A stretch of 64,000 nucleotides of DNA, from sequence record ON528745. One strand, written 5' to 3'. The number at the start of each line of letters is the position of its first letter. The first letter of the stretch is position 1. This document shows positions 38,511 through 45,293 of the stretch, in pieces. The notes beneath the pieces are model-generated. The model was not told the origin of the DNA. It saw only the letters and a program-made list of their open reading frames with translations, and searched no databases. Source of the stretch: Shigella phage ESH35. The position numbers and the translations under genes are program-made.

Positions 38511-39134
38511 ATGATTATTAATCTTGCAGATGTTGAACAGTTATCTATAAAAGCTGAAAGCGTTGATTTTCAATATGATATGTATAAAAAGGTCTGTGAA
38601 AAATTTACTGACTTTGAACAGTCAATTCTTTGGCAATGTATGGAAGCCAAAAAGAATGAAGCTCTTCATAGGCAGTTGAATAAAATCATTAAAAAGCATT
38701 TAACTAAATCACCTTATCAGTTATATCGTGGTATATCAAAATCGACAAAAGAACTCATTAAAGATTTACAAGTTGGAGAAGTGTTTTCAACGAACAGGGT
38801 AGATTCATTTACTACTAGTTTGCACACAGCATGTGGTTTTTCTTATGTTGAGTATTTCACTGAAATAATATTTCGCTTAAAAACTGATAAAGCTTTTAAT
38901 TATTCTGACCATATCAGCGATATTATACTTTCTTCTCCTAATACTGAGTTTAAGTACACGTATGAAGATACTGGTGGGCTAGATTCAGAGCGTACTGATA
39001 ACTTAATGATGATTGTGCGTGAACAAGAATGGATGATTCCAATTGGAAAGTATAGAATAACTTCTATTTCAAAAGAAAAATTACACGATTCATTTGGAAC
39101 ATTTAAAGTGTATGATATTGAGGTAGTTGAATGA
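38511..39134 (+). CDS. modB: ADP-ribosyltransferase ModB
   Basis: 207 aa; R-S-E triad candidates (YRGIS, STS, EQEWMIP); paralogous to next ORF. Confidence 0.7.
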   Translation: MIINLADVEQLSIKAESVDFQYDMYKKVCEKFTDFEQSILWQCMEAKKNEALHRQLNKIIKKHLTKSPYQLYRGISKSTKELIKDLQVGEVFSTNRVDSFTTSLHTACGFSYVEYFTEIIFRLKTDKAFNYSDHISDIILSSPNTEFKYTYEDTGGLDSERTDNLMMIVREQEWMIPIGKYRITSISKEKLHDSFGTFKVYDIEVVE

Positions 39135-39733
39135 AATATTCAGCAATGCAATTAAAAGATTTTAAAATCAAATCAATGGATGCATCTGTGCGTGCTTCTA
39201 TTCGTGAAGAATTACTTTCCGAAGGATTTAATTTATCTGAAATTGAACTTTTAATTCATTGTATTACTAATAAACCAGACGATCATTCTTGGTTAAATGA
39301 AATAGTCAAATCTCGTTTGGTTCCAAACGATAAACCTCTTTGGAGAGGTGTTCCAGTTGAGACTAAACAGGTGTTAAATCAAGGAATTGATATTATTACA
39401 TTTGATAAAGTAGTATCAGCTTCATATGATAAAAATATAGCTCTACATTTTGCTTCTGGATTAGAATACAACACACAAGTTATTTTTGAATTCAAAGCTC
39501 CTATGGTGTTTAATTTCCAGGAGTATGCTATAAAAGCTTTACGTTGTAAAGAATATAGTCCGAGTTTTAAGTTTCCGGATAGCCATCGCTATCGTAATAT
39601 GGAATTAGTTTCAGATGAACAAGAAGTAATGATACCAGCTGGAAGTGTATTTAGAATTGCGGATAGATACGAGTATAAAAAGTATTCAACATACACTATC
39701 TATACTCTTGATTTTGAAGGATTTAATCTATAA
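39131..39733 (+). CDS. modA: ADP-ribosyltransferase ModA
   Basis: 200 aa; LWRGV, S-x-S, EQEVMIP motifs; start overlaps modB stop. Confidence 0.7.
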   Translation: MKYSAMQLKDFKIKSMDASVRASIREELLSEGFNLSEIELLIHCITNKPDDHSWLNEIVKSRLVPNDKPLWRGVPVETKQVLNQGIDIITFDKVVSASYDKNIALHFASGLEYNTQVIFEFKAPMVFNFQEYAIKALRCKEYSPSFKFPDSHRYRNMELVSDEQEVMIPAGSVFRIADRYEYKKYSTYTIYTLDFEGFNL

Positions 39734-39849: not shown

Positions 39850-40596
39850 ATGAAACTGTCTAAAAATCAAATTCGTAAAATTACACGTCGTCTAGAGCAC
39901 ACTCAGGCATCTGCTAAAAGACGTTCTAAAGATTTTAACTTAGACTTCAATTACATTAAGAACATTTTAGATCAGAAAGTTTGCGCTTACTCAGGAGAAC
40001 CTTTTGATAATCGTATTGAAGGAGAGAAATTATCATTAGAACGTTTTGATAATAACGTTGGATACATTAAAGGGAATGTTATTGCAGTAAAGAAAAAGTA
40101 CAATACATTTCGTTCTGATTATACTTTAGAAGAGTTGATTGAAAAACGGGATTTATTTGCTTTGCGAATTGGTCGTTCATCTGCGAAAAAAGTTCATAAA
40201 CTAAATTTAGATGAAAAGAAATGGGCTAAAATCAAAAAGACTTATAATCAAATTAAAGCTATACAGAAAAAACGTGAAAATCGAATTGAACACATTTCTC
40301 AGCTTTCTAAATCAAAACAGACCTCTGACATTAAGCTAAGGATTATAGCACTTAAAGCTCGTATTGATGGTTCTCGCATAGCAGAAGGCGCTGAAGTTGT
40401 TAAACTGAACGTTCTTCTTAAAGGCTCGGATTGGAAAATTGTGAAAAAGTTGTCAGAAGCAGAAATGCAATATGATATGTGTGATAAAATTATTCAAGGT
40501 GTAGAGCGGTATCAAAACTTGTCTTTTATTGATAAACTTAAACTGAAAAGAGGATACCCGCTAAATTGTTCAATTTTTAAACTTATCCGAGGATAA
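39850..40596 (+). CDS. srd: Srd-like protein
   Basis: 248 aa, basic; length and position match T4 Srd; early promoter upstream. Confidence 0.55.
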   Translation: MKLSKNQIRKITRRLEHTQASAKRRSKDFNLDFNYIKNILDQKVCAYSGEPFDNRIEGEKLSLERFDNNVGYIKGNVIAVKKKYNTFRSDYTLEELIEKRDLFALRIGRSSAKKVHKLNLDEKKWAKIKKTYNQIKAIQKKRENRIEHISQLSKSKQTSDIKLRIIALKARIDGSRIAEGAEVVKLNVLLKGSDWKIVKKLSEAEMQYDMCDKIIQGVERYQNLSFIDKLKLKRGYPLNCSIFKLIRG

Positions 40597-40597
40597 T

Positions 40598-40909
40598 ATG
40601 GTTTATGTATATGCGATAGTTTACCGAGACAAAGACGGATTTACGGCGCCAGTTCCACTTGATGAACATCGTCCTGCTGTGTTTTTTGAAAGAGAGATTG
40701 CTGATAGAGTTTTTACTACTCTCAAAGACCAATATAAACTAGCTTTAGGTATGGGAATTCCAAGACTAGTTGAGACTCCACGCAAGTTTTGGTTTAATAA
40801 AATAGAAGTTAAACATGTTAAGCCTGATGTAGATACACAAAGATTATATCAACGAATTCTAGATACTGGGCGTATTGTTAGTATTCCAATTGCAGGGACT
40901 TTCCGATGA
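40598..40909 (+). CDS. hypothetical protein (dda.1 position)
   Basis: 103-aa ORF overlapping dda start. Confidence 0.45.
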   Translation: MVYVYAIVYRDKDGFTAPVPLDEHRPAVFFEREIADRVFTTLKDQYKLALGMGIPRLVETPRKFWFNKIEVKHVKPDVDTQRLYQRILDTGRIVSIPIAGTFR

Positions 40910-42225
40910 CATTTGATGATTTGACAGAAGGCCAGAAAAACGCCTTTAACATCGTTATGAGGGCTATTAAAGAAAAGAAACATCATGTAACTATTAATGG
41001 ACCTGCTGGTACTGGTAAGACTACTCTTACTAAGTTCATCATTGAAGCTTTAATATCAACAGGCGAAACTGGTATCATTTTGGCAGCTCCTACACATGCA
41101 GCTAAAAAGATTCTTTCAAAACTGTCGGGGAAAGAAGCGAGTACTATTCACAGCATTCTTAAAATTAACCCGGTAACATATGAAGAAAATGTTCTTTTTG
41201 AACAGAAGGAAGTACCAGATTTAGCTAAATGCAGGGTATTAATCTGCGATGAAGTGTCAATGTATGATAGAAAGCTATTTAAAATTCTGCTTTCAACTAT
41301 TCCACCTTGGTGTACTATAATTGGAATAGGGGATAATAAGCAAATTAGACCTGTTGATCCAGGAGAAAATACTGCTTATATCAGTCCATTCTTTACACAC
41401 AAAGATTTTTATCAGTGTGAACTTACTGAAGTTAAACGCAGTAATGCTCCTATTATTGATGTAGCTACTGATGTTCGTAACGGTAAGTGGATTTATGATA
41501 AAGTTGTTGACGGGCATGGAGTACGTGGATTTACTGGTGATACCGCTTTACGCGATTTTATGGTAAATTATTTTTCAATCGTCAAATCGCTAGATGATTT
41601 GTTTGAAAATCGCGTAATGGCATTTACGAATAAATCTGTTGACAAGTTAAACAATATTATTCGCAAAAAGATTTTTGAAACTGATAAAGATTTTATTGTC
41701 GGTGAAATTATTGTAATGCAAGAACCGTTAATTAAAACATATAAAATTGATGGAAAGCCTGTATCAGAAATTATTTTTAATAACGGACAATTAGTTCGTA
41801 TTATAGAAGCAGAGTATACATCGACGTTTGTTAAAGCTCGTGGTGTTCCTGGAGAATATCTAATTCGTCATTGGGATTTAACAGTAGAAACTTACGGTGA
41901 TGATGAATATTATCGTGAAAAGATTAAAATAATTTCATCTGATGAAGAGTTATATAAGTTTAACCTATTTTTAGGTAAAACGGCAGAAACTTATAAAAAT
42001 TGGAACAAAGGCGGAAAAGCTCCGTGGAGTGATTTTTGGGATGCTAAATCACAGTTCAGTAAAGTGAAAGCACTTCCTGCATCAACATTCCATAAAGCTC
42101 AGGGTATGTCTGTAGACCGTGCTTTCATTTATACGCCTTGTATTCATTATGCAGATGCTGAATTAGCTCAACAACTTCTTTATGTTGGTGTTACCCGTGG
42201 TCGTTATGACGTATTTTATGTGTGA
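40906..42225 (+). CDS. dda: Dda DNA helicase (SF1)
   Basis: 439 aa; Walker A GPAGTGKTT, Walker B LICDEVSM. Confidence 0.92.
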   Translation: MTFDDLTEGQKNAFNIVMRAIKEKKHHVTINGPAGTGKTTLTKFIIEALISTGETGIILAAPTHAAKKILSKLSGKEASTIHSILKINPVTYEENVLFEQKEVPDLAKCRVLICDEVSMYDRKLFKILLSTIPPWCTIIGIGDNKQIRPVDPGENTAYISPFFTHKDFYQCELTEVKRSNAPIIDVATDVRNGKWIYDKVVDGHGVRGFTGDTALRDFMVNYFSIVKSLDDLFENRVMAFTNKSVDKLNNIIRKKIFETDKDFIVGEIIVMQEPLIKTYKIDGKPVSEIIFNNGQLVRIIEAEYTSTFVKARGVPGEYLIRHWDLTVETYGDDEYYREKIKIISSDEELYKFNLFLGKTAETYKNWNKGGKAPWSDFWDAKSQFSKVKALPASTFHKAQGMSVDRAFIYTPCIHYADAELAQQLLYVGVTRGRYDVFYV

Positions 42226-42231
42226 GGATAT

Positions 42232-42492
42232 ATGATTAACATCAATTCAAAATATTTAAATCGTCTAATAGATGGTATAAGGAAGCATACTAATAAGCAA
42301 GATAATCTCGATGTTATGGTAACAGGAGCTGAGCTCCTTCATAAGCTTTATCTTATAAGTGATACTATATTAGCAATTAAACGAATTGAAAAACAATCAT
42401 ATCACAGTAATACAGATACGGTAATTACACTAGATGAAAGTGTCTGTAAATTACTAATTAAATTTGAGGAAGCTATTCGTGGAAATAACTAA
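42232..42492 (+). CDS. hypothetical protein (paralog triplet 1)
   Basis: 86-aa ORF. Confidence 0.45.
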   Translation: MININSKYLNRLIDGIRKHTNKQDNLDVMVTGAELLHKLYLISDTILAIKRIEKQSYHSNTDTVITLDESVCKLLIKFEEAIRGNN

Positions 42493-42724
42493 AGACCAGT
42501 TTTATCTGCTTCAAGATAAAGTGAGCGAAATTTATGAAATAGCTTATAGTAAAAATCGTAGAAATGTAAAAATTGAATCTGGCAAGTTAATGCTTCAATT
42601 AGAAGAAATTGAACGAGATTTAATTGCGTTAGAATTCTTTTGTGGTGAAGTGAAAACTGTTACAATCAGTGATTATGTTTTAGGCGAAATTAGCCATCTT
42701 TATAAGGCGATTATTAATGATTGA
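42464..42724 (+). CDS. hypothetical protein (paralog triplet 2)
   Basis: 86-aa ORF; C-terminal ..DYVLGEISHLYKAI. Confidence 0.45.
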   Translation: MRKLFVEITKDQFYLLQDKVSEIYEIAYSKNRRNVKIESGKLMLQLEEIERDLIALEFFCGEVKTVTISDYVLGEISHLYKAIIND

Positions 42725-42959
42725 ATTAAGTTGGTATCAGTTTAAATCTCTTATGGCAAATGTTAAAGCTGTCATTGAAGAAAATCCAGGACCTGAAAAT
42801 GTAACTATTCGTGAAAAAGCTTCAAAGATAGTATACAGTCTTGAAGAGATGCAAAAAGATATTGAATCTATGGCAAAATTTATTGATGAGCCCATTAATA
42901 AAGTTTATATCCAAGATTATACTGTAGGTCAAATTCGCGATTTAGCGAGGAAAGTTTAA
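42717..42959 (+). CDS. hypothetical protein (paralog triplet 3)
   Basis: 80-aa ORF; C-terminal ..DYTVGQIRDLARKV similar to previous ORF. Confidence 0.45.
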   Translation: MIELSWYQFKSLMANVKAVIEENPGPENVTIREKASKIVYSLEEMQKDIESMAKFIDEPINKVYIQDYTVGQIRDLARKV

Positions 42960-43642
42960 TGTTTGATTTTATTATAGATTTTGAAACGATGGGAAGCGGT
43001 GAAAAAGCAGCTGTTATTGATTTGGCTGTAATTGCTTTTGACCCTAACCCGGAAGTTGTTGAAACATTCGATGAACTAGTTTCACGTGGCATTAAAATTA
43101 AATTTGACTTAAAAAGTCAAAAAGGACATCGTCTTTTTACTAAAAGCACTATCGAATGGTGGAAGAATCAATCTCCTGAAGCTAGAAAAAATATTGCACC
43201 ATCAGATGAAGATGTAAGCACTATCGATGGTATTGCAAAATTCAATGATTACATCAATGCACATAACATCGATCCTTGGAAATCTCAAGGTTGGTGCCGT
43301 GGAATGTCGTTTGATTTTCCAATTTTAGTCGATCTCATTCGCGATATTCAACGTCTTAACGGCGTTTCCGAGAATGAGCTTGATACATTTAAGTTAGAAC
43401 CGTGTAAATTCTGGAATCAACGCGACATTCGTACTAGAATTGAAGCACTTCTCCTTGTTCGTGATATGACCACTTGTCCTCTTCCAAAGGGAACTTTAGA
43501 TGGATTCGTTGCACATGATTCTATTCATGACTGTGCGAAAGACATCCTGATGATGAAGTATGCTTTGCGATACGCTATGGGTCTTGAAGATGCTCCGTCA
43601 GAGGAAGAGTGCGATCCTCTGTCTCTTCCAACAAAACGATAA
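42959..43642 (+). CDS. dexA: exonuclease A DexA (DEDDh 3'-5' exonuclease)
   Basis: 227 aa; N-terminal DFETMG motif; length and position match T4 DexA. Confidence 0.8.
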   Translation: MFDFIIDFETMGSGEKAAVIDLAVIAFDPNPEVVETFDELVSRGIKIKFDLKSQKGHRLFTKSTIEWWKNQSPEARKNIAPSDEDVSTIDGIAKFNDYINAHNIDPWKSQGWCRGMSFDFPILVDLIRDIQRLNGVSENELDTFKLEPCKFWNQRDIRTRIEALLLVRDMTTCPLPKGTLDGFVAHDSIHDCAKDILMMKYALRYAMGLEDAPSEEECDPLSLPTKR

Positions 43643-44227: not shown

Positions 44228-44728
44228 ATGATTAAAATTAATACTACGTATCAAATGAAAAAACCATCTGAAATTGATTTCCAGACAATGTCGAATACGA
44301 CTGATAGCAAGTTTTGGGAACTTCTTGGTACAACTGGCGGATATCCTTTTACTGTTATTAGTGTTAATAGCGGAATTCTCATTGGTACAGTGTACATGGA
44401 AATTAGAAACTATTATGGAAGGGTATCATCATTCATCATCTATGAAGAAGATTTCAATTTATTGACAGAAATTGAAAAAGAAGAACAAGAAAAATCCCAT
44501 ATTGATATGGATTTAGTTTCTATGTATGTAACACCAGTTGAAAAAATTGAAGACCCGACTGATTTGTTGTGTAAGGCAGTTTATATTCGTCGTCCATTCG
44601 CGAATCCGATTGGCGGTTGGGTAACTGATCAGTGGATTGAAGATGGTGTTGAACTTCTGAACGTAGTTCATGCTGGAGAGTACTCTGTAGTTCCTCGCAG
44701 CGCAGTGATTAATGTTCGTGTAAGCTAG
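44228..44728 (+). CDS. hypothetical protein (paralog pair A)
   Basis: 166 aa; C-terminal motif VTDQWIEDGVELLNVVHAGEYSVVP. Confidence 0.5.
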   Translation: MIKINTTYQMKKPSEIDFQTMSNTTDSKFWELLGTTGGYPFTVISVNSGILIGTVYMEIRNYYGRVSSFIIYEEDFNLLTEIEKEEQEKSHIDMDLVSMYVTPVEKIEDPTDLLCKAVYIRRPFANPIGGWVTDQWIEDGVELLNVVHAGEYSVVPRSAVINVRVS

Positions 44729-44801: not shown

Positions 44802-45293
44802 ATGAATATTAATATCGGTGAAATTGCTCGTGTATCTGATAAATCCCGTTCTAAAGCAGCAGGAAAATTGGTTGAAGTCGTAAGCATTCAGCTTAAACAT
44901 GGTGTTAAAGATGAAGATTCTGAAGTAAAAGTGCGTATCATTCCTAAAGATGGAATGTCTAAACCTCAGTTTGGTTATGTTCGATGGAAATTTCTTGAGC
45001 CTGCGTTTTTGAAAGCTGTTCCCGCTAAAGGAATTGAAACGATTGATACTTCGCATGTAGGTGTAGACTTTAAGTGGAAACTTGGTCAAGCTATCAAGTT
45101 CGTTGCTCCTTATGAGTTTGAATTTACTGAAGGTGAGGAAGGTGTTGTTAACCGTACTCGCGCTATGTGTGCATACATTACTGATCAATGGGTAGAAGAT
45201 GGCGTTAAGTTATACAACGCGGTATTTTTAGGAACATACAAAGTCATTCCTGAAAGTTGGATTAAACACTACAGCAAAGCTCGCTATGCATAA
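44802..45293 (+). CDS. hypothetical protein (paralog pair B; MotB-sized)
   Basis: 163 aa; C-terminal motif ITDQWVEDGVKLYNAVFLGTYKVIP shared with previous ORF. Confidence 0.5.
   Translation: MNINIGEIARVSDKSRSKAAGKLVEVVSIQLKHGVKDEDSEVKVRIIPKDGMSKPQFGYVRWKFLEPAFLKAVPAKGIETIDTSHVGVDFKWKLGQAIKFVAPYEFEFTEGEEGVVNRTRAMCAYITDQWVEDGVKLYNAVFLGTYKVIPESWIKHYSKARYA

Follow-up and report, generated by a model that had tools for sequence, protein, structure and literature searches.

Three small genes between dda and dexA of Shigella phage ESH35: T4 dexA.2, dexA.1 and a probable remote relative that T4 lacks

The analysed window is a stretch of 64,000 nucleotides of Shigella phage ESH35 (ON528745), a Tequatrovirus and close relative of T4. 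Over positions 41900-43300, the window shares 99.1% identity with Escherichia phage vB_EcoM_ASO78A and 90-99% with 497 phage records. The genes modA (39131-39733), srd (39850-40596), dda.1 (40598-40909) and dda (40906-42225) are followed by three small open reading frames, termed here ORF A (42232-42492), ORF B (42479-42724) and ORF C (42717-42959), and by dexA (42959-43642), all on the plus strand. The upstream anchor, dda, is a 439-aa ORF nearly identical to the T4 Dda DNA helicase. The downstream anchor, dexA, is a 227-aa ORF identical to T4 DexA (exonuclease A), a protein that is 100% identical in many Tequatrovirus records. The gene order in the T4 record NC_000866 (srd, dda.1, dda, dexA.2, dexA.1, dexA) matches that of ESH35 apart from ORF A, which is the sole extra gene in the dda-dexA interval and is missing from T4. 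An earlier note, made from the letters of the sequence, had described three ORFs of 80-86 aa with overlapping ends between dda and dexA. We confirmed them at 42232-42492, 42464-42724 and 42717-42959 (plus strand), and its count of two dexA.x ORFs in T4 was right, as the T4 interval holds dexA.2 and dexA.1 only.

The ESH35 string dda.1-dda-A-dexA.2-dexA.1-dexA is tightly packed, with stop and start codons that overlap or abut. ORF A starts with an ATG 6 nt past the dda stop codon, preceded by GAGGA 4 nt upstream, and encodes a near-neutral protein of 86 aa (9.9 kDa, pI 7.9). The ATG of ORF C (80 aa, 9.3 kDa) overlaps the stop codon of ORF B (ATGATTGA), and the ORF C stop codon overlaps the start of dexA (TAATG). 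ORF B had been given a TTG start at 42464 (86 aa) in the earlier note. No Shine-Dalgarno sequence was found upstream of this TTG; the GTG at 42479 is preceded by GAGG 9 nt upstream, and T4 dexA.2 is annotated from the corresponding GTG. For these reasons the GTG at 42479 is most likely the start, and the five additional residues from the TTG are probably not translated. Read from the GTG, ORF B has 81 aa (9.5 kDa, pI 4.8) and overlaps ORF A by 14 nt instead of 29; T4 DexA.2 has likewise been described as a 9.5 kDa protein (PMC10097602). An Rfam scan of 41800-43400 returned zero matches at E <= 1, and a promoter and terminator scan of the locus DNA gave signals at chance level.

ORFs B and C correspond to known T4 genes. 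ORF B is 91% identical to T4 DexA.2 (NP_049631, UniProt P39418), and ORF C is 94% identical to T4 DexA.1 (NP_049630, UniProt P32285). They are orthologues with the same position, order, overlaps and GTG start, and without any material difference. A tblastn search found dexA.2 and dexA.1, each at >=80% identity, in about 480-500 phage records. ORF B matches positions 1-80 of phrog_1700 (E 7e-50) and ORF C positions 80-159 (E 1.4e-42), and Pfam PF26837 has been precomputed on proteins near-identical to both. The phrog_1700 profile, with a length of 160, is built on the fused dexA.2-dexA.1 length. Some records do carry the two genes as one fused ORF of 159 aa, e.g., BFVD G1FHL1 (phage ime09 'dexA.1'), which reflects either a genuine +1 fusion or an error of sequencing or annotation. 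In the records of phages Kha5h and Aplg8, an 11-nt 'prophage attachment site (type HK022)' is annotated inside dexA.2, at about ESH35 42678-42688 (Kha5h segment 1079-1089). The Aplg8 record adds 'insertion site confirmed by experiment', which is odd for a virulent T4-like phage.

The comparison of ORFs B and C by BLASTP gave 25% identity over 79 aa (E 2e-9). Their Smith-Waterman score was 82, whereas shuffled sequences averaged 26.8 (sd 4.9), which corresponds to z 11.4, and none of 2000 shuffles reached 82. The C-terminal pattern that the earlier note had recognised in the second and third ORFs is thus part of a full-length similarity. Judged from these alignments, ORFs B and C are clear but old paralogues. 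A DNA repeat search revealed no direct repeat longer than 25 nt and none linking the three ORFs in register. Since no DNA-level repeat connects the ORFs, the duplication is ancient. A recent tandem duplication was ruled out by the missing nucleotide repeat, by the 25% identity of B and C and by the presence of the B/C pair already in T4. The local tandem duplication proposed in the earlier note therefore stands in kind, but it is neither recent nor specific to ESH35.

ORF A is also widespread. It was found by tblastn at >=80% of its length and >=80% identity in 308 phage records, and dexA.2 (>=80% identity) in about 496. By these counts, most of the T4 relatives searched carry ORF A, which makes T4 one of the minority that do not. 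In five genomes, the pN/pS of ORF A was 0.16 in its own frame versus 0.39 and 1.05 in the other two; the values for dexA.2 and dexA.1 were 0.13 and 0.31, respectively. ORF A is a real gene under purifying selection. Its orthologues (phrog_4967), among them AR1_017, RB14ncORF015c, RB51 ncORF017c and KNT57_gp250 of Shigella phage KNP5, are 90-100% identical to it and lie directly after dda, as in ESH35. They are annotated as hypothetical proteins only, and their records carry no link to the DexA.1/DexA.2 family, unlike the assignment made here.

At least two of the 308 records, those of RB14 and sb1, have a frameshift or a stop codon in ORF A. In RB14, a 10-nt tandem duplication (ATATTTAAAT twice) shifts the frame after codon 9, at about ESH35 42250-42262 (RB14 segment ~1175-1200), and the record annotates just a 58-aa internal remnant (RB14ncORF015c). 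Natural pseudogenisation or an error in sequencing could each account for this lesion; taken as it stands, the frameshift suggests that ORF A can be lost. In the record of Shigella phage sb1, an in-frame stop codon interrupts ORF A, and dda appears as three separate CDS. The sb1 assembly is probably rich in errors, rather than a record of true gene decay.

The earlier note had called all three ORFs paralogous. It offered no evidence for a three-way relationship, and it named a lack of significant pairwise similarity as a refutation of the claim. Such similarity is evident between B and C, but ORF A shows none, either to ORF B (z 0.7) or to ORF C (z 1.05), and on pairwise comparison alone the three-way claim would have fallen. 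Its link to the family emerged at the profile level and through an intermediate sequence. The profile of phrog_5263 (77 positions) matches all three ORFs over their full length, with E-values of 1.8e-5 for A, 3.5e-8 for B and 7e-3 for C. The only protein encoded in the dda-dexA interval of the Gaprivervirus VR20 (gp014) is the closest detectable relative of ORF A (29% identity), with a Smith-Waterman z of 7.7-8.4 that none of 3000 shuffles equalled. The same protein scored z 12 with ORF B, z 5.5 with ORF C and z 10-17 with the equivalents in five other genera. A hidden Markov model built from 12 family members without A gave ORF A 22.9 bits (E 2e-5), whereas the highest score among 5000 shuffles of A with matched composition was 15.4, lower by 7.5 bits. 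Applied to 374 stop-to-stop ORFs of the window, this model matched only A, B and C. With hhalign, the alignment of the ORF A family was compared with a 23-sequence alignment of the remaining members, and residues 1-84 were aligned on 1-81 with a probability of 92.5% and E 5e-7.

The structures predicted by AlphaFold2 show the same topology for ORFs A and B, although the two models are not independent, because the input alignment of A held B/C relatives. In ORF A (pLDDT 88.5), strands are predicted at residues 2-5 and 64-67 and helices at 6-21, 26-52 and 69-85. In ORF B (pLDDT 94.4), the strands are placed at 2-4 and 60-62 and the helices at 5-24, 28-55 and 65-79. The predicted fold of A, B and C is a generic three-helix bundle, in which a short N-terminal strand is followed by two long helices, then by another short strand and the last helix. 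All three ORFs fit the family in length (about 76-86 aa), in locus (dda-dexA) and in strand. ORF A departs from the other members in a loop between helix 2 and strand 2 that is 6 residues longer, in the missing (S/E)DY motif that is conserved before helix 3 and in its near-neutral charge, most members, including most single-copy ones, being acidic.

It could be argued that ORF A is unrelated to dexA.1 and dexA.2, being an independent small gene or an inserted moron whose likeness to the profiles reflects the convergence of small helical proteins. The missing pairwise similarity to B and C would agree with this, as would the longer loop, the lack of the SDY/DY motif and the placement of ORF A in a PHROGs family of its own (phrog_4967, E 8e-59). 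Precomputed hits of PF26837 exist for B, C and most single-copy members and are missing for ORF A, and a word-indexed homologue search with ORF A alone as the query brought back only near-identical proteins. Against it, four partly independent tests (phrog_5263, the VR20 protein, the leave-A-out model and hhalign) agree on a full-length, colinear match. ORF A also shares its length class, locus and strand with B and C, and its stop and start codons overlap or abut those of its neighbours. We consider an unrelated origin quite improbable. ORF A is best described, from its profile-level matches and through the Gaprivervirus intermediate, as a strongly diverged, remote member of the DexA.1/DexA.2 family. 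The paralogy of the three ORFs thus holds for B and C on direct comparison, and for A by the profile and intermediate tests only. The assignment of ORF A (phrog_4967) to this family is the only new element.

The alignment of the window with T4 revealed that the two phages differ by 232 nt, a segment present in ESH35 at 42226-42457 (plus strand) and missing in T4, with breakpoints ambiguous by a few nucleotides. Among the matches listed, every record aligned in two pieces (those containing ORF A) spans 423-433 nt where records aligned in a single piece span 189-201 nt. After dda, T4 reads TGA-TTAAATTTGAGGAAGCTATTCGTGGAAATAACTAA, which comprises a 21-nt spacer and the dexA.2 start, and it is identical to ESH35 from TTAAATTT onward. 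What T4 keeps of ORF A is its 3' end (42458-42492 in ESH35, plus strand), made up of the last 11 codons and the stop codon; dexA.2 has its ribosome-binding site (GAGG) and its GTG start within this piece. Read in the frame of ORF A, the T4 spacer still codes for its 11 C-terminal residues (IKFEEAIRGNN) followed by the same stop codon, and these residues complete helix 3 of the family fold. Imperfect 8-nt direct repeats, T[G/A]ATTAA, are found at 42234-42240 and 42454-42461. The ambiguous breakpoints fit either one 232-nt deletion together with a synonymous GTG-to-GTA change, or deletions of 10 nt and 222 nt between the T[G/A]ATTAA repeats.

Because T4 retains this 3' end of ORF A, a deletion in the T4-type allele is, on the sequence comparison, the likely event, and we favour it over an insertion in ESH35. 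A single 232-nt deletion accounts for this in a simple way: it would have taken away the first 75 codons of ORF A together with its start codon and ribosome-binding site, leaving the last 11 codons in the T4-type allele. The opposite course, in which the short T4 allele is ancestral and ORF A entered a T4-like ancestor with two genes by recombination with another T4-like phage, appears to be the less likely one. In its favour, the outgroup genera have one or two copies and never an orthologue of ORF A, and both alleles are spread widely across Tequatrovirus, points that also limit confidence in the polarity. The nearest relative of ORF A, that of Gaprivervirus, is only 29% identical, so ORF A did not arise by a recent duplication of B or C. 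An insertion would, however, require a stop-less fragment of 75 codons to land in frame upstream of a spacer that already codes for the end of ORF A. A search for signs of mobile elements or homing endonucleases around the 232-nt segment gave no terminal inverted repeats above chance level and no mobility or endonuclease ORF. The ORF A state is, moreover, the commoner one (308 records versus about 496 with dexA.2). The term 'inserted', which the earlier note had used for all three ORFs, is not supported: only ORF A is extra with respect to T4, and it belongs to the commoner state, of which T4 retains the 3' end.

This is a very small family, restricted to T4-like phages. When 1.84 billion representative proteins were searched exhaustively with a profile, only 16 hits at E <= 0.001 were obtained, with no distant relatives of known function among them. 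Four of the 16 were the three families of the window and the Dhakavirus-type copy. Most of the others, about 40-110 aa long, were further members, fragments or short chimeras, and two were long (653 and 742 aa) with multiple partial matches. In every genus carrying them, at least nine genera of Tevenvirinae, the members occupy the dda-dexA interval on the same strand, and the last copy ends in a stop codon that overlaps the dexA start in all genera examined but Gaprivervirus VR20. The number of copies ranges from none in RB69 (Mosigvirus), which keeps dda and dexA, through one each in Dhakavirus, Gaprivervirus, Jiaodavirus, Kanagawavirus, Winklervirus, Gelderlandvirus and Karamvirus and two in Tegunavirus and T4, to three in the ESH35 window. 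The other genera with family members carry one or two copies versus three in ESH35. Their single-copy proteins (VR20 gp014, Dhakavirus IME08 'dexA.1' etc.; phrog_5263) agree with those of ESH35 in size, locus and profile. A Biquartavirus (Aeromonas phage) keeps dda and dexA with no family member between them. In Krischvirus and in Acinetobacter phages, the interval contains different small ORFs, which do not match the family at the sequence level.

The Dhakavirus IME08 copy (segment 1998-2237) is closer to dexA.2 at its N-terminus (TKDQFY) and in part of helix 2. In its last third it shares 18 of 28 residues with dexA.1 and 7 of 28 with dexA.2. This block-wise pattern is suggestive of a B/C chimera but too weak to claim one; it could result from unequal crossing-over between copies or from complementary divergence after duplication. 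A second local pair of paralogues lies downstream of dexA in the window, consisting of motB.1 (so named in the AR1 annotation; 44228-44728, 166 aa) and motB (44802-45293, 163 aa). The two have a common C-terminal motif, TDQW[IV]EDGV.L.N.V..G.Y.V[IV]P, and BLASTP gave 55% identity over 29 aa (E 9e-10).

Searches for domains and structures gave no sign of an enzyme. Pfam-A and NCBIfam returned no domain for A, B or C, and no PF26837 match even for B and C, this model being probably absent from the Pfam copy searched. A PDB sequence search gave only coiled-coil noise and no relative with a solved structure. With Foldseek, no significant match was obtained in the PDB, where the top fold matches were generic three-helix bundles, the first of them designed de novo. 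In BFVD, every hit was an uncharacterised protein (about 70-112 aa), and most came from T4-like phages (CC31, Cronus, Acj9 and Aeh1), with two hits each in Cronus and Acj9. In the literature searched, the papers that mention dexA.1 or dexA.2 of phages assign no function to them.

Several data are available for T4. Both DexA.1 and DexA.2 have been detected as proteins, their RNA being classed as early and the proteins as middle (PMC9697503 supplement), and all genes from dda.1 to dexA.1 could be expressed from a single transcription start site upstream of dda.1 (bioRxiv 10.1101/2024.04.04.588121). By analogy with T4, the string from dda.1 to dexA may be transcribed as one early/middle unit with coupled translation. 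Knock-down of dexA.1, dexA.2, dda and dexA by CRISPRi-ART was scored "Not Fit" in each case (PMC11879866 supplement file 15). We read this score as no fitness effect and T4 DexA.1 and DexA.2 as expressed but dispensable. In addition, two T4 proteins were found to be joined to cGAS by Cap2 in CBASS, and DexA.2 is one of them (PMC10097602).

From the T4 experiments, the tight packing, the 0 to 3 copies, the deep divergence and the occasional loss, we infer a binding or accessory role. None of A, DexA.2 and DexA.1 would be an enzyme. They are most likely small accessory factors that bind proteins, serving either against host or defence proteins or in the nucleic-acid transactions of Dda and DexA. 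The family genes would be dispensable on laboratory hosts and subject to quick gain, loss and diversification. Our best guess, based on size, fold, context and variability, is that all three are small non-enzymatic binding or accessory proteins. Taken as a whole, we hold with good confidence that this is a small, old and locally expanded DexA.1/DexA.2 family (PF26837, phrog_1700, phrog_5263), with three copies in ESH35, whose members would act as binding or accessory factors.

More specific roles have to be weighed against this reading. The three proteins might be dedicated accessory subunits or regulators of the Dda helicase or the DexA exonuclease, since at least nine Tevenvirinae genera have members in the interval between the two genes, the last copy runs into the dexA start in nearly all of them, and the T4 data suggest co-transcription from one start site. 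Gene overlap is, however, general in T4-like genomes and a weak sign of interaction. RB69 and the Aeromonas phages, which keep dda and dexA without a family member, argue against an obligatory partnership, as does a copy number of 0 to 3. The T4 knock-down had no fitness effect, though the same was true of dda and dexA themselves. We regard such a dedicated role as possible but rather unlikely. Many GenBank/RefSeq records call dexA.2 'dextranase', or dexA.1 and dexA.2 'exonuclease'. That the proteins have either activity is hardly credible, as these product names are its only backing and evidently derive from the gene symbol "dexA.x". The proteins are 80-aa three-helix bundles in which neither Pfam nor NCBIfam finds a catalytic domain, and their structural matches are equally generic.

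A further reading is that the dda-dexA interval is a small diversifying array, in which copies of one three-helix-bundle scaffold would be duplicated, diverge and be lost (0 to 3 copies) because each binds and neutralises a different host factor or component of anti-phage defence. Arn, IPI*, Dmd and Acb2/Vs.4, which are host-takeover or anti-defence genes of T4-like phages, are likewise small genes of early or middle expression that vary between relatives, are non-essential under laboratory conditions and often encode acidic proteins. The likeness is one of analogy only, as no sequence or specific fold similarity was found between them and DexA.1, DexA.2 or A. To our knowledge, no defence-related phenotype is known for these three proteins. 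We consider the array an improbable, speculative reading. If it were true, ORF A would be a counter-defence or host-range determinant that sets most Tequatroviruses apart from T4, and DexA.2 would be conjugated by Cap2-cGAS because it truly interacts with CBASS, and not as a labelled bystander.

For annotation, the result offers a clean-up. In hundreds of Tequatrovirus genomes, ORF A stands as an orphan, which can now be linked to a family, and the false enzyme names of its relatives can be flagged. Beyond this and the allelic series described below, the finding is real but ordinary. T4, the reference phage, most likely represents the deleted state at the dda-dexA locus and is hence atypical. 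Together, the series from 0 to 3 copies and the presence or absence of ORF A within Tequatrovirus form a natural allelic series that is usable to find the function of the DexA.1/DexA.2 family.
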